Shown: positions 13,864-32,842 of the stretch, piece after piece
Numbering within the stretch: the first letter of the stretch is position 1
How the letters are laid out: each line of letters begins with the position of its first letter
From: a virus
Direction: 5' to 3' (one strand)
Length of the DNA: 64,000 nt
IMG/VR virus record: IMGVR_UViG_3300045988_182459
Coordinates: 66,120-130,119 of that record
The notes under the pieces: model-generated
Databases searched by the model: none
Told to the model about the DNA's origin: nothing
The model's input: only the letters and a program-made list of their open reading frames with translations
Position numbers and translations under genes: made by a program

Positions 13864-14088
13864 ATGTCAAATATCACTGTTGGTCGAATCTTGCTTCTGG
13901 ACCTTGTGTTCCTTGTTAATTCTGCTTTAACTCTTGTTGTTTTCAAGTTCGTTGGTCTTTTGGATGTTATGACTACACCGGCCTTGTTCTTTCATTTTGT
14001 TGGTTCTTATATTATCCTGGCATATTTCATGTTTTGGATTTATCCGCAGATTCTGGAAGACCGGGAAAACAACGACGACGATAAATAA
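13864..14088 (+). CDS. small membrane protein
   Basis: 74 aa with two hydrophobic helices. Follows the upstream gene closely. Confidence 0.45.
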   Translation: MSNITVGRILLLDLVFLVNSALTLVVFKFVGLLDVMTTPALFFHFVGSYIILAYFMFWIYPQILEDRENNDDDK

Positions 14089-14099
14089 TCTGGTCGGAA

Positions 14100-14315
14100 C
14101 CGTAGGTGCTTGAAACCGTAGGTACTTGCCTAAAGTTGAGCGAAATGTACTTGCGGGAAGCGTAGCCGCAATAGACTACTCCGAAAGTACCGTAGGCCCG
14201 CATACCGTAGGTCATACAATGAAGCGTAGCTGTTTGTAAAGAAATGAAAGACGGATGACGGAAGCGTAGCCGCTGCCCGGTAAAAGGCTGCCGGTTGCGT
14301 AGCTGCCATTCGTCT
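14100..14315. repeat. iteron-like array: ACCGTAGGT x4 interleaved with (A/T)GCGTAGC x4 and GTACTTGC x2
   Basis: ACCGTAGGT at about 14104, 14120, 14190 and 14211. GAAGCGTAGC-like copies at about 14158, 14222, 14262 and 14297. All lie in a 250-bp intergenic region. Confidence 0.6.
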
Positions 14316-14340
14316 TTTTTGGTTTAGAGGAGAGACGAGA

Positions 14341-14574
14341 ATGGTATATGAGATAATCAGTCCACGCCCACATGGTTCAGAAACATTCGTGGGATTGCAT
14401 ACAGAATACCCGGAATGCATCGACCCGTTGAGTGTGCAGGAAGCGATGCTCAGCGGCGGTAACAAAATCACATTCAAGGGCACTGAGAAAGAATATGAGG
14501 CGGTCAAGAAAAAGCTGGCAGCCAAAGTCAAGGTGACCATCATCAAAGAACAGAAAGCGAAGAAAGAAAAATAA
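14341..14574 (+). CDS. small hypothetical protein with a K/E-rich C-terminus
   Basis: RBS GGAGAGACGAGA before ATG 14341. Confidence 0.45.
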   Translation: MVYEIISPRPHGSETFVGLHTEYPECIDPLSVQEAMLSGGNKITFKGTEKEYEAVKKKLAAKVKVTIIKEQKAKKEK

Positions 14575-14575
14575 T

Positions 14576-15325
14576 ATGGTAAAGACTGATTTCAAGAATA
14601 CTTATGAAGCATTTATGCATTGCGATAAAAACAAGCTGGCGAAAGAATTTGCTGCCATGTATTCCGATAACGAGGAACAGGCGGCAGCAGTTAAGGAAGT
14701 CGATAGAGCATTTGCTAGAATGGAGACCGTCACGCCAAAAGCAGTAAACCCGGATGAGCAAAGTATCATTGTGGTTTGCAAGGGATTTGGCGATGAAGGC
14801 GATGACACTGTCTGTATCGAAGTGAGAGACCTCCGTAACTGGAAAGAAAAGCACACGAAAATATCTGAGCCTATTAGTGACGAGATGCTGACCTTTATGA
14901 GCACGGACGAAATCGAAAACGCGGTGATGAATCAGGACCTTCCCACGAAATACGCTTTTGAACTCAGCGCTTGGGACGAAATTCTTAGCTGGAAACTTGC
15001 ACCATCTAGTATCTACATCTACGGCCTTGAGTTTTGCCTGTCCCGTGTGTTGTGGGAAATGACATTCTTCGGAGTGGATGAATCCGGTGTGGAGTTGGAA
15101 AAGAAAAAGCTCGATACGAGATTTGAGGAAGCGCAGAGGGCTTTTGATGAAAACAAGGAACCTCGAATTGGATTCTCAATTGAAGACATTGCCAAGAAAC
15201 TTCTCGGTGATGACTATACCGAAGACTGGTATCCCGAAGAGGAGCAGGAACGCGACCGCCGAAATATGGTTATTTTCTCCTATAAGGACAACAATGAAAT
15301 GGAACGGCTGCTCATGATGCTTTAA
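14576..15325 (+). CDS. hypothetical protein
   Basis: 249-aa ORF beginning ATGG at the upstream stop. Coding-like composition. Confidence 0.55.
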   Translation: MVKTDFKNTYEAFMHCDKNKLAKEFAAMYSDNEEQAAAVKEVDRAFARMETVTPKAVNPDEQSIIVVCKGFGDEGDDTVCIEVRDLRNWKEKHTKISEPISDEMLTFMSTDEIENAVMNQDLPTKYAFELSAWDEILSWKLAPSSIYIYGLEFCLSRVLWEMTFFGVDESGVELEKKKLDTRFEEAQRAFDENKEPRIGFSIEDIAKKLLGDDYTEDWYPEEEQERDRRNMVIFSYKDNNEMERLLMML

Positions 15326-15344
15326 GAGAAAACGAGAAGGAGAG

Positions 15345-16190
15345 ATGAGGATGAGCGAAATCTTCGTGGCGGGAGATATCCATGGAAACTATCAAGGATT
15401 GATGGAATCTCTCAATGCAGCAGGCTGGCAGGAGGGCGATACCATCATCTGCGTGGGAGATGTCACCGACCGTGGAAAAGATAATGCCAGAACGGTGTCC
15501 TTTCTGCAGGAGCATGAATGTAATGTGAGATTGGTTCAGGGCAACCATGAGCTTCAACACAGGAAGATGCTTCAATACTATCATGTGTTAATCAAAGTCC
15601 CCCAAATTCGGTTGTTTGCGGCAGGAATATTCAGAACATACAAGGAAGGATATACTTATCCCAAAACAAAAGAAGAACTCAAAGAGTATGAGTGCAGTGC
15701 CGATAAACGAATCGAAATCATTCAGGGAAAGCCTAAGACCTTCCATGCTTTTGTTCGAGCCTTTATCGCTTATACATTAGCATGGGAAGACGATAGCCTT
15801 TGGAAGATTATTCTGTACTTGCTGGAAGTGATGTGCGGTAATCCCTATAATGCTGAAAGAACCATCTATGAATATCTCTCTTGTACAAGAAAACAAAGAG
15901 CATTATTTGAATGGCTTTGGAATCAGACGGTTACGGAGGTTAATATAGATTATACAGAGCCATATAGATATCAGCATATAGTGATTACGCATAACAATCC
16001 TTTTGGAAGATATTACAGTTACGACCTGGATGAGTTACGACCTGGACACGATAAGACGCTCTATGTGTTTGGGCACATCCCGCATTCCGAAATCGTCAGG
16101 TTTGACAGGGCTTGTTCCGGATGCACTTATCTGGACATTGACACATCCCTGAATTCGGTCGGCGTCATTAAGCTGAGTGATTATCTCTAA
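15345..16190 (+). CDS. calcineurin-like metallophosphoesterase (Ser/Thr phosphatase family)
   Basis: Motifs GDIHG ... GDVTDRG ... GNHE in canonical order. RBS AGGAGAGATGAGG. Confidence 0.8.
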   Translation: MRMSEIFVAGDIHGNYQGLMESLNAAGWQEGDTIICVGDVTDRGKDNARTVSFLQEHECNVRLVQGNHELQHRKMLQYYHVLIKVPQIRLFAAGIFRTYKEGYTYPKTKEELKEYECSADKRIEIIQGKPKTFHAFVRAFIAYTLAWEDDSLWKIILYLLEVMCGNPYNAERTIYEYLSCTRKQRALFEWLWNQTVTEVNIDYTEPYRYQHIVITHNNPFGRYYSYDLDELRPGHDKTLYVFGHIPHSEIVRFDRACSGCTYLDIDTSLNSVGVIKLSDYL

Positions 16191-16203
16191 GAAAGCATAA
16201 GCA

Positions 16204-16250
16204 CCATAGGGGCGCAGAGCCTCTGTGGTGCTTTTTCTTTTTGCATGGGT
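16204..16250 (+). terminator. rho-independent terminator
   Basis: GCACCATAGGGG...TCTGTGGTGC stem followed by TTTTTCTTTTTGC. Confidence 0.5.
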
Positions 16251-16302
16251 AAAGTTTCCTTGCTCACACGGAAACAATGCACAGGCAAAAAAAGAAAGGA
16301 GC

Positions 16303-16345
16303 CACCCGAAGGTGACTCCAATAGTTTAGGTTCCTGTTTTAGCCG
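16303..16345 (-). terminator. rho-independent terminator (minus strand)
   Basis: Minus-strand GGAGTCACCTTCGGGTGGCTCC followed by TTTCTTTTTTT. Confidence 0.5.
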
Positions 16346-16354
16346 TGAAAAGCA

Positions 16355-16576
16355 TCAGGCGGCAGACGGGGTATCCGTTGCTGCGTCAAAGAGCAGTGTG
16401 CCTTCGCCGTTATAGCTTGCGTCGTTCAGAGCGGCGTAGATGTAGTCAATGAAATAGCCATCATCACCATTGTAGGTGGACTTCATGGAGACAAGATTGC
16501 CGTTGTCATCATAGGTGTTCTCGAAGGTCTGTTCGAAGTTGCCCATCGTAGCATCTTTGCCCTGCTGTTTGGTCAT
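16355..16576 (-). CDS. small hypothetical protein (73 aa, D/N/G/Y-rich)
   Basis: Isolated minus-strand ORF with its own downstream terminator. RBS is weak. Confidence 0.35.
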   Translation of the reverse strand: MTKQQGKDATMGNFEQTFENTYDDNGNLVSMKSTYNGDDGYFIDYIYAALNDASYNGEGTLLFDAATDTPSAA

Positions 16577-16693
16577 ATTACCATCGACATTGTGCGCATC
16601 CGTGCTATGACGAACTGCTGCCGCAAGTTCAAGACGATGTAACTACAAGCCGTCTGCTTTCGGATGGACGGCTTTTTTCTTTTGAAAAAATGT

Positions 16694-16721
16694 TTGACGA
16701 AACTTGCGAACGGCATACAAT
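16694..16721 (+). promoter_or_regulatory. box promoter site 0: TTGACG-16-TACAAT with CTTGCGAAC in the spacer (weaker box variant)
   Basis: Read directly. Followed by the leader terminator at 16779-16812. Confidence 0.45.
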
Positions 16722-16778
16722 AAGTGTTGTACGACAGATAATAAACCGGCATCAACCATTCATAATCTGACAAATTCA

Positions 16779-16812
16779 GACAGGCACCAATCGGGTGACC
16801 TGTCTTTTTTTG
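16779..16812 (+). terminator. leader terminator with the shared TTTTTTTGTTGC tail
   Basis: GACAGG...CCTGTC stem then TTTTTTTGTTGC, about 40 nt before ATG 16852. Confidence 0.5.
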
Positions 16813-16851
16813 TTGCAAGACCGCGTAATGCGGAGAAAGTCGAGGAAAGCT

Positions 16852-17202
16852 ATGAACACCATTATGAACACCGCCGAATTCATCCGCGTTACCGACCTCC
16901 TGAAGAAGGAGAAAATTGCCAAAAATAGCGGCAACATATTTGCCGCTATGATGGCGATGCGCGAGAACCGCCCCGAAGCAATCTGCGCAGATGGCTTTAA
17001 GATGTCTATCCAGGCATCCGAAGACCACTACTGCCAGAAGGACGACGAGGGGAGCTACGTGAGCGTAGAAGTCGGGTTCCCGTCTCCGTCCGAGCCATTG
17101 CTCGACGAATATGGTGATGACGGAGTGTACGGCTATGTGCCGCTCACTGTTGTCGATGCCATCATCGCCAAGCACGGTGGAATCCTGCTCGATGAGCAGT
17201 AA
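16852..17202 (+). CDS. small protein of an unknown family (paralog of 60195..60521)
   Basis: Shares ICADGF(K/T)(M/L)SIQAS ... YGYVP(L/V)..VDA(I/V)(I/L)AKHGGI with the 60195 product. Confidence 0.6.
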   Translation: MNTIMNTAEFIRVTDLLKKEKIAKNSGNIFAAMMAMRENRPEAICADGFKMSIQASEDHYCQKDDEGSYVSVEVGFPSPSEPLLDEYGDDGVYGYVPLTVVDAIIAKHGGILLDEQ

Positions 17203-17351
17203 GCCACTCTATCCAATTCCAGCATGACATTCGGCTGCACGCCGTTTGTTCATATATGAAGCGGTTATCATTTCTCTTAATGAGAGCAAAAATGATAGCT
17301 GCTATTTTTATTTTACAAGCCTCGAAAATACGAGGAGAAAGAGAGTTTGCT

Positions 17352-18050
17352 ATGAACACCAACACTATCACTATCAATTCCAAGAAAGCTATCCCCGGCA
17401 TCAATGATGTGGCTACTAAGTGCCCTGCAGCAGCCAACATGTGGGGCAGCAAAAACGCTTGCTCTCCAAATGAGGTATCTGCAGGCAACAACAAAATGGC
17501 ATGGTTTGTCTGCCCCGATTGCAAACAGGAGTTTAAGGCTCCCGTTTGCAACGTCGTCAATTCTTTGTTGCATGACAATACCGGTTGCCCTGTTTGTGCA
17601 GGTCGCAAAGCTGTTTTCGGCGTCAACGATTTGGCGACCATGTATCCAAAAGCCGCTGCTATGTGGAGCGGCAAGAACGATTACGCCCCCAGCGAAATTC
17701 CTGCTCGGTCGTCCAGACGCGCAATTTTTGCGTGCCCCGATTGCAAACAAGAGTTTGTGACAAGCGTCCACAACATGACGCGGGCTATTGCATCCGGTGT
17801 TACTTGCTGCCCCAATTGCAGAATGCGAGGAAATACTATCGGTGCGATTTACAAGGATGAGTATGGTTCGCCAAAATCTGTTGGCACTACGATGACGATG
17901 AAGGACGGCAGCAAAGCCACCTGCACCGCTTATCATGGTGTCAACAACATCACCGTCGAGTTCGAAGACGGGTTCGTTCTGTACCATGCTCGCTGGAATC
18001 AGTTTATCCGTGGCGTTCTTCACCACGGTCAGAAAACCACTGAAGAATAA
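17352..18050 (+). CDS. zinc-ribbon repeat protein (DUF4379-like repeats G.NDLAT..P..A.MW....CPDCK.EF)
   Basis: Three CxxC-bearing repeats. A conserved 5' leader block is shared with the 18180 gene. Confidence 0.7.
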   Translation: MNTNTITINSKKAIPGINDVATKCPAAANMWGSKNACSPNEVSAGNNKMAWFVCPDCKQEFKAPVCNVVNSLLHDNTGCPVCAGRKAVFGVNDLATMYPKAAAMWSGKNDYAPSEIPARSSRRAIFACPDCKQEFVTSVHNMTRAIASGVTCCPNCRMRGNTIGAIYKDEYGSPKSVGTTMTMKDGSKATCTAYHGVNNITVEFEDGFVLYHARWNQFIRGVLHHGQKTTEE

Positions 18051-18179
18051 TAAAAAGCCATCTGATACGAAGTTGGCTTGTGAATGTGAATGTAGCAGCT
18101 ATCATCTTCCTCCAGTAGGGGGATGGTCGCTGCTTTTTTATTACAAGCCTCGAATGTTACGAGGAGAAAGAGAAAAATT

Positions 18180-19739
18180 ATGAATGCTTTTATGAATGTT
18201 ATGCACACCACCACCTGCAACTGCACTGCTTGCACGACTGTTCCGACTCTTGGCATTAAGATGCCGTATGAGGAAGAGGAAAAGAAAGCTACTAAAACTA
18301 GAAAGACTCGCCAAAAACTGATTGTTGGAGAAAACGATTTGGCTACGGTCGCTCCTGAAGTTGCCGCAATGCTGAGTGAGAAAGATAAGCACTTTGCTTT
18401 TGAAGTTACTGCTGGAAGCAACAGGAAACTTACTTTTGTCTGCCCTGACTGCAAGAAAGAGTTTGAGGCTAAAATTTGCAGTGTCACAATAGCAGTTTGC
18501 CCATGTCCTTATTGCCGCAAAGTAAAAAAAGCGCGTCGCAATTCGAAACCTATTGTTGGAGTTAATGATTTGGCTTCGCAATGCCCGCAGGCTGTAGCAA
18601 TGTGGAGCGAAAAGAATAAATGCTACCCAACAGAAGTTTTCGCCCAAAGCACTAAGACTGCAATTTTCAATTGCCCAAAATGTAAGCACGAATTTGAGAC
18701 GACTGTCACATCCTTTGTGAAAAGCATCAAAAAATCGAAAGGCAATACTACTGGCTGCCCTATCTGTAATGGGACTAAAGTTGTTGTTGGCTACAATGAT
18801 TTAGCTACGACCTGCCCCCAAGTAGCTGCTATGTTAAGCAAAAAAAACGCTGGCTTTGCAACAAAGTACACTATGGGAAGCAATGCAGTTGCAAGTTTTA
18901 CTTGTCCTGATTGCAAAAAAGAATTTGAGGCTAAAATTTGCAAAGTCACAAATGTAGTTTACCCATGTCCTTATTGCCGCGATACAAAAATTCTCGCTAA
19001 TCATATGGATTTGGAAACTTACTTAAAGAAAAATAATCGAGAGGATATTCTTAACTGTATTCGTCCAGATAGTCCGTATCAGGCAAGTGAAGTTTCTTAT
19101 TCCAGCAACAAAACATTATTTCTTAATTGCCCTGAATGTGGTAATAAATGGGTGATTTCAGCTAATTATCTGACTGCACAAGGCATTAGTTATATGTGTG
19201 GTAATTGTAATCAAACGACAAATTTTATTTCCAAGCCAGAGCAGTATGCTGTTCGTATTGCAATGGGTTTTGCAAGGGAAAACGGAGTTCCAAATGCATT
19301 CGATGAAGTTCGTCACATTTTTGGCTATAACAACAAATATGGTGTAGATTTTGTCGATAACACTCGCAAGATTTGCATGGAGTACAATGGTGTATATTGG
19401 CATAAAGACAAAAAAAGAGTTGATTGCTATAAATTCATCAAAATCCATAATGCCGGATATACTTTTATTCGTATACTGGAACCGGGCTTAAAAGCTTTTG
19501 ACAAAAAATATGACATTGTATTGCCAAAAAACTACAAACACGGTAACGAGTATGAATCAAAAATCATGGAGGACCTTGGCTATAAGCTTATTTCTTTATT
19601 TGAGGAAATCTATAATTACAAGGCCACTCCTGAAATTCAAAAATTAGTCGATTTTAAAGAATTCGAAAAGTGGTACGATATTCATCGCAAAAGAATTTCT
19701 GCAAAAGCTACCGAAAACGCAGCAAAGAAAGCTGCCTGA
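18180..19739 (+). CDS. zinc-ribbon repeat protein with a C-terminal DUF559/Vsr-like PD-(D/E)xK endonuclease domain
   Basis: Five or more ribbon repeats. The C-terminus ...YGVDFVDNTRKICMEYNGVYWH...GYTFIRI fits the DUF559 pattern. Markedly AT-rich compared with its neighbours. Confidence 0.7.
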   Translation: MNAFMNVMHTTTCNCTACTTVPTLGIKMPYEEEEKKATKTRKTRQKLIVGENDLATVAPEVAAMLSEKDKHFAFEVTAGSNRKLTFVCPDCKKEFEAKICSVTIAVCPCPYCRKVKKARRNSKPIVGVNDLASQCPQAVAMWSEKNKCYPTEVFAQSTKTAIFNCPKCKHEFETTVTSFVKSIKKSKGNTTGCPICNGTKVVVGYNDLATTCPQVAAMLSKKNAGFATKYTMGSNAVASFTCPDCKKEFEAKICKVTNVVYPCPYCRDTKILANHMDLETYLKKNNREDILNCIRPDSPYQASEVSYSSNKTLFLNCPECGNKWVISANYLTAQGISYMCGNCNQTTNFISKPEQYAVRIAMGFARENGVPNAFDEVRHIFGYNNKYGVDFVDNTRKICMEYNGVYWHKDKKRVDCYKFIKIHNAGYTFIRILEPGLKAFDKKYDIVLPKNYKHGNEYESKIMEDLGYKLISLFEEIYNYKATPEIQKLVDFKEFEKWYDIHRKRISAKATENAAKKAA

Positions 19740-19756
19740 TAGATTACAAGACCTCT

Positions 19757-19778
19757 GACGAACTCAGTCGTCTTTTTA
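19757..19778 (+). terminator. rho-independent terminator
   Basis: GACGAACTCAGTCGTC followed by TTTTT. Confidence 0.5.
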
Positions 19779-19801
19779 CATAGATAGCGTTTCCTGCCGT
19801 T

Positions 19802-19832
19802 CACCCATAACCGGGTGGGCGGCTTTTTCTTT
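19802..19832 (+). terminator. second terminator-like hairpin
   Basis: CACCCATAACCGGGTGGG followed by CGGCTTTTTCTTTTG. Confidence 0.4.
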
Positions 19833-20067
19833 TGCCAACTACTTGCCATACGTCAATTTCATGCATGAATTACAAAATAGTAACCGTTCCATACAACCGC
19901 TGGCGATAACTACCAGTTGTAGTGTATTTGATTGGACTTCCAAATTCTATTTTAGTCGCACATATTGCAACTTACGGTTGTATTTGCTATACTAATAACA
20001 ACCGATAACAACCAACGAAGCACAAATAACAACTAATAGGTGTTACCGCGAACCGAGGAGGCCAATC

Positions 20068-29054: not shown

Positions 29055-30487
29055 CGAGCTTATCGCAGGCCGCAGCCCTTGATAGAGGCTCACTCTCCAC
29101 AGACTTTAAGATTCGGTCGTCCTGACCGTACTGTTCGCCTGTGGTTATGAGGTGGCTGGCATAGCCAGCATGTCCATTCCTTTCTTTAGAATATTTTCTG
29201 CTGCATTTTTATCCCTATCGTGTGATGTATTACACTTCGGGCAGACCCAATGCCGCACATTGAGGCTTTTAACCTCTTTGTTTTGGTATCCGCAGCAGGA
29301 ACAGGTCTGGCTGCTTGGATAGAATGTTGGTACTTTGACAACTACTCTTCCTGCCCAACTGGATTTATAATCAAGTTGTCGAAAAAATTCTCCCCAAGAA
29401 GCGTCAGAAATACTTTTAGCAAGGTTACGATTACGAACCATACCCTTTACATTGAGGTCTTCTACACAGATGATTTGGTTTTCTTTCACCAGTGTGGACG
29501 ACAACTTATGTAGGGTATCTTTTCGTTTGTTGGTTATTTTTTCGTGGCAGCGAGCCACCTTGATGCGCTGCTTTTCCCAGTTGGCAGAGCCTTTCTTCTT
29601 GCATGACAGTTTTTTCTGCTCACGCTTTAGTTTAGCTTCCGCTTTCTGTAGATACTTATGGTTTGGATGTTCGTTTCCATTGCTGTCAACAGCAAAAGAT
29701 TTGATGCCAACATCCAAGCCGATAGCGACATTCTTAACAGGAAGCGGTGCTACTTCTACTTCGCAAAGAATGCTTACATAGTATTTTCCGCTTGCTGAAC
29801 GACGGATTGTTGCCTTGCAAATACGACCTTCAATGTTGCGGCTTTTGCGATAGCGCACCTTTCCAAGTGTAGGAAGCTGAATGTACTTATCGTCAACTTT
29901 AATGCTTTTTGCTTTAGTAGTTGTATAACTTTCTTCTCCTCTTTTTCGTTTGAATTGAGGGAATCCTTTACCGTCTTTGAAAAAGCCTTTATAGGCATTA
30001 TCTAACTGACGACAGCTATATTTGAGTGCTTGGCTATCCGCTTCAGCAAGCCAAGGAAGATAGGTCTTCATCTGAGGAAGTAGATTTTGCGTATCAATAT
30101 AGCTCATGCTTTCGCCGCGCCGCCTATAGGCTTTTATTCGCCTATCTAATATAGAGTTATATATAAAGCGGCAGCAGCCGAGCGTTTTATTGATTTTTAC
30201 TTCCTGCTCTTCTGTAGGCTCTAGCCGAAATTTATAGCCTTTATGTACTTTCAAGGTGATTCACCTCCTTTATGGATTTTTGTACTTGTGAATTGGTCAA
30301 ACCCCCGGAAAAAGTTGAATAGCCTGTTTTTCTCCTCCCACAATTCTTTCTAACATAATTATATCATATTTTACAGATGGACGGGCCAAAATCGCAACTT
30401 TGTTCATGAATACTTAACCTTTATGCACGAGATTTATTGTTGCCCTAATATATAAAACTAGAGCCCCGTCATCTTGGATGGGGCTCT
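29055..30487 (-). mobile_element. IS200/IS605-family TnpB-only (IS1341-like) element
   Basis: Contains the TnpB gene. Subterminal hairpin AGAGCCCCGTCATCTTGGATGGGGCTCT at 30460-30487 (left end). Right-end hairpins CGGTCGTCCTGACCG and GCTGGCATAGCCAGC near 29115-29172. Boundaries are approximate. Confidence 0.6.
29145..30254 (-). CDS. tnpB: TnpB (IS200/IS605 OrfB RNA-guided endonuclease)
   Basis: RuvC motifs [18 protein letters not shown] and [12 protein letters not shown]. Zinc finger CSCCGY...CPKCN. Confidence 0.9.
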
Positions 30488-30810: not shown

Positions 30811-30888
30811 TAAAGACAGAGCGATTGCGAGATGGGGCGATACCGATGCAGTAGGAATGAGAATCTTAGCAGCTAAAAGAGTCAACAA

Positions 30889-30924
30889 CCCCGCCTAAAC
30901 CGGTTCGCCGGTTATAGACGGGGC
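30889..30924 (-). repeat. GC-clamped REP/IS-end-like hairpin (inverted copy of the element at 40074-40105)
   Basis: The reverse complement GCCCCGTCTATAACCGGCGAACCGGTTTAGGCGGGG shares GCCCCGTCTATA...TTAGGCGGGG with 40074-40105. Confidence 0.55.
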
Positions 30925-31138
30925 TTGCGGGGCAACCTGTAAGCCCAGTTGATTAGCCTAAGCCCATTGCTCCGGCAGTGGGGAAAACTACGTTGTGTAC
31001 TAATAATATAGGCACCTTATCCATGCTCCACAAGTGGTGAGCTCTGCAGGCGTTTCGTTAAACATCTCCGAGGGGAGGAGAAGTGCGAGCGTCATGTCGA
31101 AAGGCTAAAACAGTGCATAACATTGGCGAAGTGGACCA

Positions 31139-31177
31139 CAGGACGCAAGTCCTGACTTATAGTTTTATTACTATTTT
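31139..31177 (+). terminator. weak leader terminator just upstream of the flotillin gene
   Basis: CAGGAC-GCAA-GTCCTG followed by a U-rich ACTTATAGTTTTATTACTATTTT. Confidence 0.35.
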
Positions 31178-31198: not shown

Positions 31199-32842
31199 AT
31201 GGTATATGTGATTGCGATTGTGGCAGCCCTGATTATTCTCTTTGGATTTCTCTGCTACAAGAAAGCTCCGCCCACGGAGGCTATCGTTGTGACCGGCTTT
31301 GGTCTGTCTAAGCCTAAAGTAGTTTGCGGAAAAGGTACATTTGTTCTGCCCGTTCTTCAGCGGGCTGACCGGCTAAATATGCGCCTTCTGAAAATTGACG
31401 TCAAAACTCCTGAAACAGGTGTTAAGACGAAGAACGGCGTAAGTCTCTGGATTGACTCTGTTGTCACGATTCAAGTCTACAGCGAAAACTCTACCGTTCT
31501 GGATGAAGAAGTGAAGGCATCCGGTCTGAAAGACGCCAAGGCGTACATCATGTCCCGCCAACAGGCAGCCATCTCGAACTTTCTGGGCATGAACGAGCAG
31601 GGCATCAATGAGAAAGTTAATGACGTTCTGCAGGGCAATTTGCGTGAGATTGTCTCTGACATGACCGTCGACCAAATTCTGACGAACCGCAAGCAGATGG
31701 CTGTGAGCGTTATCGAGAATGCTCGCCCCGACCTTGCTAAGATGGGACTTGAGGTCGTGACTTTTAACGTCCAGGATATCAGGGATGCGGTGGATGTTCA
31801 GGGCCACAACCACGGCGTCATTGAGGCTATCGGCATTGAACAGGAAGAGCTTGTGAAAAAACAGGCTGAAATTGCCCGTGCTCAGGCTGCCCGTGATGTA
31901 GCCTGCGCGAAGGCCGATGCTGAGATGGCTGCAAATGCCAAGGAAGTTGAAGCGCAGACTGCGATTGCAAAACGCAACAATGAATTGCAGCTCGCCAAGG
32001 CAAAGCTGAAAGCTGAAGCTGATAAAGCTGCGGCTGACGCAGATGCTGCCGGTCAGATTCAGATGAATCTCCGCGCCAAAGAAATCAAAGAAGCGGAAGC
32101 GGATGCTGAAATCGCCAAGCAGAAGAAAATGGTAGACCTTGCCGCACAGGAAGCCGAGGTCCAGCAACGCAAACTGGATGCGGAAGTCCGCAAACAGGCA
32201 GATGCTGACCTGTACCGCCGCCAGAAAGAGGCAGAAGCCAAGAAATATGAGGCGGAACGTGCAGCTGAGGCACAGAAGTTCTCCAAGCAGCAGGAAGCAG
32301 AAGGCATTGAACTTGTCGGTAAGGCAGAAGCTGAAGCGATTCGTCAGAAAGGCTTGGCTGAAGCGGAAGCCATGAAACAGAAAGCAGAGGCATATAAGCA
32401 GTATAACGATGCGGCTGTGGCTGAAATGCTCATCAAGGTTCTTCCTGACATTGCCAAAAGCGTGGCTCAGCCTTTGTCCAGCATTGATAAGGTTTCTATC
32501 ATTGGCGGTGACGCCTCCGGCGTATCCGGCGTTTCCGGGAACGTTCCTATCCTGATGGCTCAAACCATGCAGACGGTGAAAGAAGCGACCGGAATCGACA
32601 TGGGCGAAATTGTCCGTGCCAACAGCATCCAGGCAAAGACCGACCGCAACATCAACATCATGAATCAAGGCGAACAGCCTGTGAATAGTGAAAAGGAAGG
32701 AGGTGTCAATGCTATGGAACGCGTAGAAGGCGGCTATCTAATTCATGAGAAGAGTCTCAACGGTGAGGAAGTCACTCATTTTCGACCGGATGTGACCGAA
32801 GAAGAGAAGGCTATCATGAAAGACAAAAAGGCCAAAGATTAA
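31199..32842 (+). CDS. flotillin-like SPFH/band-7 protein with a long A/E/K-rich coiled coil
   Basis: N-terminal TM helix. SPFH core ...VVTGFGLSKPKVVCGKGTFVLP.... An (AEA)n-rich helical C-terminus, as in FloT/YqiK. Confidence 0.8.
   Translation: MVYVIAIVAALIILFGFLCYKKAPPTEAIVVTGFGLSKPKVVCGKGTFVLPVLQRADRLNMRLLKIDVKTPETGVKTKNGVSLWIDSVVTIQVYSENSTVLDEEVKASGLKDAKAYIMSRQQAAISNFLGMNEQGINEKVNDVLQGNLREIVSDMTVDQILTNRKQMAVSVIENARPDLAKMGLEVVTFNVQDIRDAVDVQGHNHGVIEAIGIEQEELVKKQAEIARAQAARDVACAKADAEMAANAKEVEAQTAIAKRNNELQLAKAKLKAEADKAAADADAAGQIQMNLRAKEIKEAEADAEIAKQKKMVDLAAQEAEVQQRKLDAEVRKQADADLYRRQKEAEAKKYEAERAAEAQKFSKQQEAEGIELVGKAEAEAIRQKGLAEAEAMKQKAEAYKQYNDAAVAEMLIKVLPDIAKSVAQPLSSIDKVSIIGGDASGVSGVSGNVPILMAQTMQTVKEATGIDMGEIVRANSIQAKTDRNINIMNQGEQPVNSEKEGGVNAMERVEGGYLIHEKSLNGEEVTHFRPDVTEEEKAIMKDKKAKD

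Follow-up and report, generated by a model that had tools for sequence, protein, structure and literature searches.

A predicted zinc-finger-array nuclease of the EDxHD/Vsr group in a probable mobile cassette of a gut conjugative element

The analysed window, a stretch of 64,000 nucleotides (nt) of the IMG/VR virus record IMGVR_UViG_3300045988_182459 (positions 66,120–130,119), contains a self-contained three-gene cassette of ~3.2 kb at window positions 16647–19834. Its open reading frames (ORFs), termed g0, gA and gB, start with ATG codons at 16852, 17352 and 18180. By its sequence, gB is predicted to encode a free-standing endonuclease of the EDxHD/Vsr group that carries an array of treble-clef zinc fingers, and the cassette is cargo on a conjugative element of gut bacteria, an integrative and conjugative element (ICE). 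The explanation that we favour, and judge reasonably probable as a whole, is that of a horizontally mobile cassette in which a homing-endonuclease-type gB is accompanied by accessory gA and g0 genes and expression is tuned by conserved leaders.

The nuclease domain of gB

The product of gB (18180–19739, + strand) is 519 amino acids (aa) long and consists of four parts: a conserved Cys-rich N-terminal peptide (residues 1–49, nt 18180–18326), three DUF4379 repeats (residues 50–273, nt 18327–18998), a degenerate DUF7836-type zinc module (residues 274–350, nt 18999–19229) and a Vsr-like/EDxHD nuclease domain with a helical tail (residues 351–519, nt 19230–19739). A preliminary description of this DNA, made from its letters, had recognized a Vsr-like PD-(D/E)xK motif at the C-terminus and had interpreted the protein as homing-endonuclease-like. 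When the C-terminal 175 aa were compared with the PDB using phmmer, the sole match was 3R3P, the catalytic domain of I-Bth0305I (E 1.6e-3), which is matched at E 4.6e-5 by a profile of 16 relatives of the gB domain. The same structure is also the best PDB match by fold, with the Vsr-like PD-(D/E)xK core. Furthermore, the PADLOC HEase model matches the nuclease core (E 5e-6), and phrog_559, annotated as an endonuclease, spans both the array and the nuclease (E 7e-18).

The candidate catalytic residues of gB, D390 (or D393), E401, N403, H408 and D415, are invariant in the family alignment (D46/D49, E57, N59, H64 and D71 of the domain, in 16 relatives). In the alignment with I-Bth0305I, N403, H408 and D415 correspond to N208, H213 and D222, which have been equated with H64, H69 and D97 of Vsr (PMC3239194). 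All members of the conserved catalytic set of I-Bth0305I (Asp196, Asn208, His213, Asp222 and a Glu) have counterparts in gB, although that of Asp196 falls beyond the region aligned by HMMER and is placed by its spacing alone. The proposed motif is thus borne out by sequence and by fold, and the match to 3R3P, the invariant residues and the known architecture of homing endonucleases all support the interpretation built on it.

This architecture is already known from a 2025 study of phage group II introns and from annotated distant relatives. The study describes homing-endonuclease genes with three to five domains of ~60 aa related to CapR/DUF4379/DUF723, followed by an EDxHD/Vsr-like domain, and its authors point to thousands of unannotated relatives (PMC12350094). 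In public records, the annotations of distant relatives read “homing endonuclease,” “DUF559 domain-containing protein” or “zinc-ribbon domain-containing protein.” Searched exhaustively, the gB domain yielded 79 cluster representatives. The distant ones carry a DUF4379 array with up to 9 repeats and, behind it, a DUF559 domain above threshold; some copies lie inside inteins. As judged from its domains, the core of the cassette belongs to this recently recognized group of homing endonucleases and is not a new kind of system.

Individual comparisons show where gB departs from its relatives. I-Bth0305I, the best match in sequence and fold, shares the equivalent Asp, Glu, Asn, His and Asp in a Vsr-like setting, but is encoded in a group I intron and relies on NUMOD/helix-turn-helix recognition, whereas gB is free-standing and has treble-clef repeats; the two catalytic domains are only about 20% identical (3R3P; PMC3239194). 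The group I/II intron enzymes likewise combine three to five zinc modules of ~60 aa with a nuclease domain of ~100 aa, but are intron-borne in phages (PMC12350094), while gB is intergenic on a conjugative element, has repeats well above the DUF4379 threshold and shares its cassette with a nuclease-free paralog, a small acidic partner and conserved leaders. The zinc-ribbon/DUF559 genes of plasmids and chromosomes of Actinobacteria and Bacillus and the homing endonuclease of Escherichia phage HelliStehle_Bas95 also place a DUF559-type nuclease behind a DUF4379 array (up to 9 repeats); they align over 66–85% of gB at 20–27% identity and are single genes as far as seen. Vsr itself (1CW0) nicks DNA specifically at mismatches, has intercalating tryptophans and a zinc site of its own, and lacks a DNA-recognition array; gB stays below the Pfam thresholds of both the Vsr and the DUF559 families (the latter represented by NGO0050, 3HRL).

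The zinc-finger repeats of gA and gB

The 232-aa product of gA (17352–18050, + strand) contains two DUF4379 repeats and a C-terminal domain of ~70 aa (...NITVEFEDG...), and the nuclease domain is absent. It is paralogous to gB (44% identity over 149 aa, E 3e-36). PF14311 (DUF4379, a treble-clef zinc finger; gathering cut-off 24.5 bits) matches gA in two stretches with 64.8 bits and gB in four with 95.6 bits, and PF25206 (DUF7836) matches the last, degenerate module of gB. A profile of the window's own repeats, with a unit of ~74 aa, finds two units in gA and four in gB, three of them canonical and one degenerate. The statement in the preliminary description that both proteins consist of repeats was therefore slightly overstated: the repeats are present in both, but a non-repeat C-terminal domain follows them in each protein, and gB starts with its Cys-rich N-terminal peptide.

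Among 569 distinct repeats from both families, Cys occupies columns 39, 42, 64 and 67 of the repeat with few or no exceptions, and each module is predicted to bind zinc through one Cys4 site formed by two CxxC knuckles. The most variable columns (49, 51, 52, 55, 58, 59 and 61) alternate with conserved hydrophobic ones (50, 53, 54 and 57) between the two knuckles. This pattern would fit an amphipathic helix whose exposed, variable face is a candidate recognition surface. The PDB contains no solved relatives of gA or of the gB array.

Repeat number varies among related loci, from 1 to 4 in relatives of gA and from 2 to 7 in relatives of gB. Even on contigs with 100% identical polymerase or g0 proteins, gA ranges from 252 to 406 aa and gB from 273 to 580 aa. 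The shorter paralog had been suggested as a possible nuclease-free immunity protein or decoy DNA-binder. While gA indeed has no nuclease domain, its repeats resemble the gB repeats of their own locus (identity 0.527) no more than those of other loci (0.539), and a decoy of matched specificity is therefore unsupported at this resolution.

The N-terminal peptide of gB (MN..MNVMH..TCNC.AC..VPTLGI.MPYEEE) is kept in both allele groups of the gene and in all contexts; its H-x3-C-x-C-x2-C pattern could be a small zinc knuckle. The C-terminal ~75 aa of gA (17823–18047; ...NITVEFEDG....Y..F..G...H) have no Pfam match. The same motif occurs as a tandem repeat in the protein P0167, beside DUF2726/MTES-type nuclease domains, and this tail may be another nuclease-associated DNA-binding module.

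Cassette boundaries and genomic setting

The conserved block was defined from related loci in public assemblies and has sharp boundaries on both sides. It begins with a hairpin and T-run at 16647–16684 (+; AAGCCGTCTGC...GGACGGCTTTTTTCTTTTG), just before which lies an ACAAG box. The sequence 5′ of 16647 differs by genomic context, two different contexts being seen among related loci. At the right end, a conserved 3′ untranslated region (UTR) at 19743–19834 (+) contains a ATTACAAGACC box, a hairpin with T-run (19757–19777) and a terminator (19796–19834). Divergence by context follows right after ...CTTTTG, and at least six different sequences are found beyond this terminator in related loci. Within the boundaries, a promoter-like site (TTGACG-16-TACAAT, 16694–16721, +), which is the best in the region with a consensus match of 10/12 and is conserved with the cassette, precedes three units, each composed of a terminator-like hairpin, a leader and a gene.

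Phage morons are autonomous promoter-gene-terminator cassettes. The present cassette resembles them in its own promoter, its terminators on both sides and its insertion in different mobile-element backgrounds, but it has three genes and internal terminator-leader units and sits on a conjugative element.

Genes for a type IV secretion system (T4SS) coupling protein and a VirB4-like protein lie upstream of the cassette, and genes for a Y-family polymerase and a YpsA-like protein lie downstream, which identifies the region as cargo of a conjugative element. The gA–gB pair also recurs beside genes for NAD-dependent DNA ligase, anaerobic ribonucleotide reductase (NrdD) and other proteins; these loci lie outside the ICE backbone and share nothing else with the backbone of the window. 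A megablast search of window positions 14000–22000 against phage and plasmid collections gave no match.

The first gene, g0 (16852–17202, + strand), encodes an acidic protein of 116 aa (isoelectric point, pI, 4.4) that is linked to gA and gB in several contexts and gene orders. It is found upstream of the gA–gB pair at 87–95% identity, and in three loci a homolog with 47–50% identity lies downstream of gB instead. Since the linkage survives this change in gene order, a functional tie to the pair can be argued. No family assignment was obtained for g0, nor a PDB fold match, known inhibitors included; its only relatives are uncharacterized phage proteins.

To the left of the cassette boundary, a 73-aa ORF on the minus strand (16355–16576) represents what is left of the 3′ part of a longer gene, which shows faint RHS-repeat matches and whose 5′ part is missing in the window. 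Longer versions occur in loci L002 and L126 (3630–4667, 345 aa). The region between the phosphoesterase gene and the cassette is variable among copies of the element.

Mosaic structure and decaying copies

The preliminary description had remarked on the AT-rich composition of gB and had attributed it to recent acquisition. The composition is confirmed quantitatively: gB has a GC content of 0.385 (0.35 at third codon positions, GC3), as against 0.43–0.54 (GC3 0.46–0.70) in neighboring genes, and the lowest-GC 600-nt window of the whole 64 kb starts at 19101, inside gB (0.34, z = −3.6). Its origin, however, is allelic replacement and not the arrival of a whole gene. When compared with L005, a locus of the same element family, the window is 90% identical at 17395–18476, then matches at repeat level or at about 68% or less, and returns to 93% identity at 19848. 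Across 83 loci, gB falls into two allele groups: a low-GC group with the motif GVDFVDN (26 loci, GC 0.385, 519 aa in 23 of the 26) and a commoner group with GLDFVDH (57 loci, GC 0.46, 285–704 aa). The low GC content of gB is thus explained by the segment 18477–19847 (+), in which a low-GC allele replaces the commoner one between flanks that are 90–93% identical to L005. On this comparison the gB of the window is a chimera whose 3′ three-quarters come from a divergent low-GC allele, with one recombination point inside the first repeat and the other shortly beyond the 3′ terminator.

Other loci contain split, truncated and fused gB genes as well as recombination breakpoints in and beside gB. Deletions end at positions corresponding to 19180–19184, in the middle of the last zinc module, and leave the nuclease domain joined with either DUF6557 or an antisense frame. 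Breakpoints in and beside the nuclease gene and decaying copies fit what PMC10055350 reports for phage homing-endonuclease genes. This combination of decay and mosaic structure is typical of selfish nuclease genes.

Public gene calls also join gB-type C-termini to N-terminal fragments of other genes (P0126, P0127, P0138, P0100, P0103, P0104, P0006 and P0007), the partners being apparent DNA methyltransferases (judged by eye), DUF6557, gA itself and an antisense frame. In three of the fusions the junction falls on an identical gB position, corresponding to 19184 in the window. Some may be assembly chimeras; P0100 is found on three contigs.

Leaders and terminator-like hairpins

The three genes share a leader of one design. 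Upstream of gA (17315–17351, +) it reads ACAAG-CCTCG-AAAATA-CGAGG-AGAAAGAGAG, followed by 6 nt and ATG, and upstream of gB (18143–18179, +) ACAAG-CCTCG-AATGTTA-CGAGG-AGAAAGAGA, followed by ATG. The g0 leader (16815–16851, +; GCAAGA-CCGC-GTAAT-GCGG-AGAAAG, then GAGGAAAG as Shine-Dalgarno sequence, SD, and ATG) has the stem CCGC/GCGG in place of CCTCG/CGAGG. The arrangement ACAAGCCTCG-loop-CGAGGAGAAAG occurs in exactly two copies in the window (17315–17341 and 18143–18170), with 0 expected in shuffled sequences. Between these two, 12 nt before and 15 nt after the loop are identical, and the loops, AAAATA and AATGTTA, differ by a 1-nt indel. The near-identical 26-nt block noted earlier is accordingly a real conserved leader with a CCTCG/CGAGG stem, but a fixed-length consensus fits one copy only because of the inserted base.

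The suggestion to look for the leader elsewhere proved productive, as it is conserved in about 50 other loci. The CCTCG-AATGTTA-CGAGG form is unchanged in about 50 of 61 gB-type genes with a recognizable start, the two other leader classes being hairpin-free, and the gB leader is identical in the window and in locus L008, whose gB proteins are just 39% identical. The latter comparison argues that the leader is under constraint. Across about 70 loci, leader conservation follows gene class. When all loci were scanned for CAAG, a perfect stem of 4–6 bp and AGAAA, the motif turned up in front of four gene classes only, apart from one apparent chance match inside the polymerase gene. These classes are g0 (stem CCGC/GCGG, loop GTAAT), gA (CCTCG/CGAGG, AAAATA), gB (CCTCG/CGAGG, AATGTTA) and a small unrelated gene starting MKTIKSIIILLV in loci L074 and L076 (CCGC/GCGG, GCAAAT). 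The last of these genes (at about 2680 in L074 and about 2467 in L076) has a CAAGA-CCGC-loop-GCGG-AGAAAG leader like that of g0 and may encode a membrane or secreted protein. A single compensatory pair (U-A versus G-C) distinguishes the two stem types, and one gA variant has a G-U pair; this reading was made by eye on the four classes, as MAFFT placed the g0-type and gA/gB-type stems out of register. The pairing data lend limited but consistent support to an RNA hairpin.

The SD most probably lies in the AGAAAGAGAG/AAGAGGA stretch, about 6 nt 5′ of the ATG, a reading that draws on general knowledge of the 16S rRNA 3′ end in addition to the sequence. The leader hairpin abuts this SD and sequesters only an SD-like GAGGAG further upstream. 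In the gB allele of the window the SD is weakened (AAGAGAA versus AAGAGGA elsewhere). Possible roles of the leader are a protective 5′ stem-loop, left after processing at the ACAAG box, or a modest tuning of translation. Searches with Rfam 15 gave no match to the leaders at gathering score in the region of the cassette and none at E ≤ 1 in 16600–19900. In 185,579 representative genomes, the leader pattern gave 35 matches in unrelated taxa, compared with about 26 estimated by chance.

Terminator-like hairpins with T-runs had been noted before the leaders of gA and gB. They are indeed present there, as well as before g0 and at the two ends of the cassette, and their folding z-scores range from −2.2 to −3.7. 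The internal ones lie at 16777–16811 (+), inside the g0 5′ UTR in an attenuator-like position, at 17260–17314 (+; a long hairpin in the g0/gA intergenic region) and at 18095–18139 (+; gA/gB intergenic region). The region contains 13 terminator-like sites, as opposed to 3.8 expected.

Five (A/G)CAAG(A)C boxes (16642, 16815, 17315, 18143 and 19746, +) lie directly 5′ of a hairpin each, at the left boundary, in the three leaders and just past the gB stop codon. This arrangement resembles the contexts of RNase Y cleavage in Firmicutes, in which a G is followed by a downstream stem. A TWRCAAGMC pattern derived from the cassette sites occurs 11 times in the window versus 5 expected, at chance level outside the cassette.

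Other elements in the window

Two further elements of the window are of the RNA-guided-nuclease type. A HEARO RNA (Rfam, 30881–31141, +; 91 bits, E 3e-17) lies directly 5′ of an ORF of 547 aa (31199–32842), and together they probably form an IscB-type element. The second is a TnpB-like gene at 29145–30254 (−), called in the identical contig L003, with OrfB_IS605 and Cas12f1-like TNB domains. A ribozyme resembling that of hepatitis delta virus (HDV), of the Faecalibacterium prausnitzii type (RF02682, 35589–35658, +; 60 bits, E 1e-8), may hint at the host lineage of the element.

Discussion

In the favored explanation, the treble-clef array of gB would recognize a long DNA site, which the C-terminal EDxHD domain would then cut. 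gA, built from the same modules with a different C-terminal domain, and g0 would probably be accessory or regulatory partners. Transcription most likely starts at 16694–16721 and would pass a terminator-like hairpin before each gene, and each gene begins with a conserved ACAAG-hairpin-AGAAAG(SD) leader. Such a layout would step expression down toward the nuclease while providing each message with a 5′ stem-loop, and points to post-transcriptional tuning at the level of stability, processing or translation.

Several observations weigh against parts of this explanation. The PDB holds no structural or experimental precedent for DNA binding by DUF4379 arrays. With 13.8 bits (E 0.053), gB remains below the Pfam DUF559 cut-off of 20.6 (PF04480), and since distant homologs exceed it (24–72 bits), the link to this family is transitive only. 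Among related loci, neither a cassette-free site nor a target came to light: searches for exact copies of the flanking polymerase, g0 and phosphoesterase proteins, and a scan of viral contigs for the right-flank sequence, yielded only copies that carry the cassette or are degraded. All examined copies of the ICE lineage contain the cassette, which fits a fixed or domesticated gene equally well as homing. Regarding expression, the promoter and terminators are consensus matches only, the leader hairpins have little thermodynamic stability (z −1.1 to −1.4), hairpin-free leaders occur in about 10 of 61 relatives, and the stems are invariant within each gene class, covariation being limited to the one compensatory pair between classes.

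The constancy of the cassette in the ICE lineage, together with an exact g0 protein indexed in 1739 blocks of the collection, would also suit a defense or exclusion nuclease of the conjugative element, which acts in a restriction-like manner against phages or competitors and is restrained on self DNA by gA and/or g0 as immunity protein, decoy or inhibitor. The acidic g0 beside basic gA and gB (pI 8.8 and 9.0), its linkage through changes in gene order, the arms-race-like speed at which array length changes among copies with identical flanks and a weak PADLOC match of gA to the candidate PDC-M14A (E 5.6e-6) are in line with this possibility. However, the closest characterized relatives are homing endonucleases and intein-embedded copies exist, and no methyltransferase domain, as in a restriction-modification system, was found in g0, gA, gB or neighboring genes, nor any other self-marking gene in the cassette. 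Furthermore, the repeats of gA are not matched to those of gB at the same locus, g0 has no fold resembling known inhibitors, and gB appears dispensable because many copies are truncated or split; we therefore regard a defense role as somewhat unlikely. The same truncated, split and fused versions, along with the weakened SD, could instead mark gB as a decaying, pseudogene-like remnant without current activity, its low-GC part being junk captured by recombination. This is very unlikely, as the gene in the window has an uninterrupted frame of 519 aa in which no zinc ligand or catalytic residue is lost, 23 of 26 low-GC alleles share exactly this length, and the cluster at 97% identity has 483 members, with the same or a near-identical protein in many samples.

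As to the leader, it may be a non-regulatory relic of the tandem duplication that yielded gA and gB, or a plain ribosome-binding region. The two genes are tandem paralogs whose upstream terminator hairpins also resemble each other, the leader hairpin is weak and is missing upstream of some otherwise similar gB genes, and AGAAAG with GAGAG/GAGGA fits an extended SD, given the sequence and the general knowledge of the 16S rRNA 3′ end. Yet the leader is 100% identical between the window and L008 across strongly diverged proteins, its loop varies while stem and flanks are constant, and the same design with a different but complementary stem precedes two unrelated genes, g0 and the MKTIKSIIILLV gene of L074 and L076. 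A relic or plain ribosome-binding region is accordingly considered unlikely, and leader-tuned expression is retained in the favored explanation.

A bolder version of the mobile-nuclease explanation, which we regard as quite improbable and put forward as speculation, is that of a natural modular zinc-finger nuclease. Each ~74-aa repeat would read a few base pairs through the hypervariable face of the helix that lies between its zinc knuckles, specificities would change rapidly as repeats are gained, lost and shuffled, and gA and g0 would control or redirect cleavage. If true, the cassette would represent a bacterial counterpart of engineered zinc-finger nucleases with a decipherable recognition code.

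The cassette does not overturn current views. The locus is a compact and very abundant human-gut example of the zinc-finger-array EDxHD/Vsr group, with clear boundaries and an intact predicted active site, and its natural variants, which differ in allele and in the number of repeats, lend themselves to studying how such arrays read DNA. It places nuclease genes at recombination breakpoints on a conjugative element, as has been reported for phages, and its terminator-leader units make it possible to test whether a potentially toxic gene is controlled stepwise.

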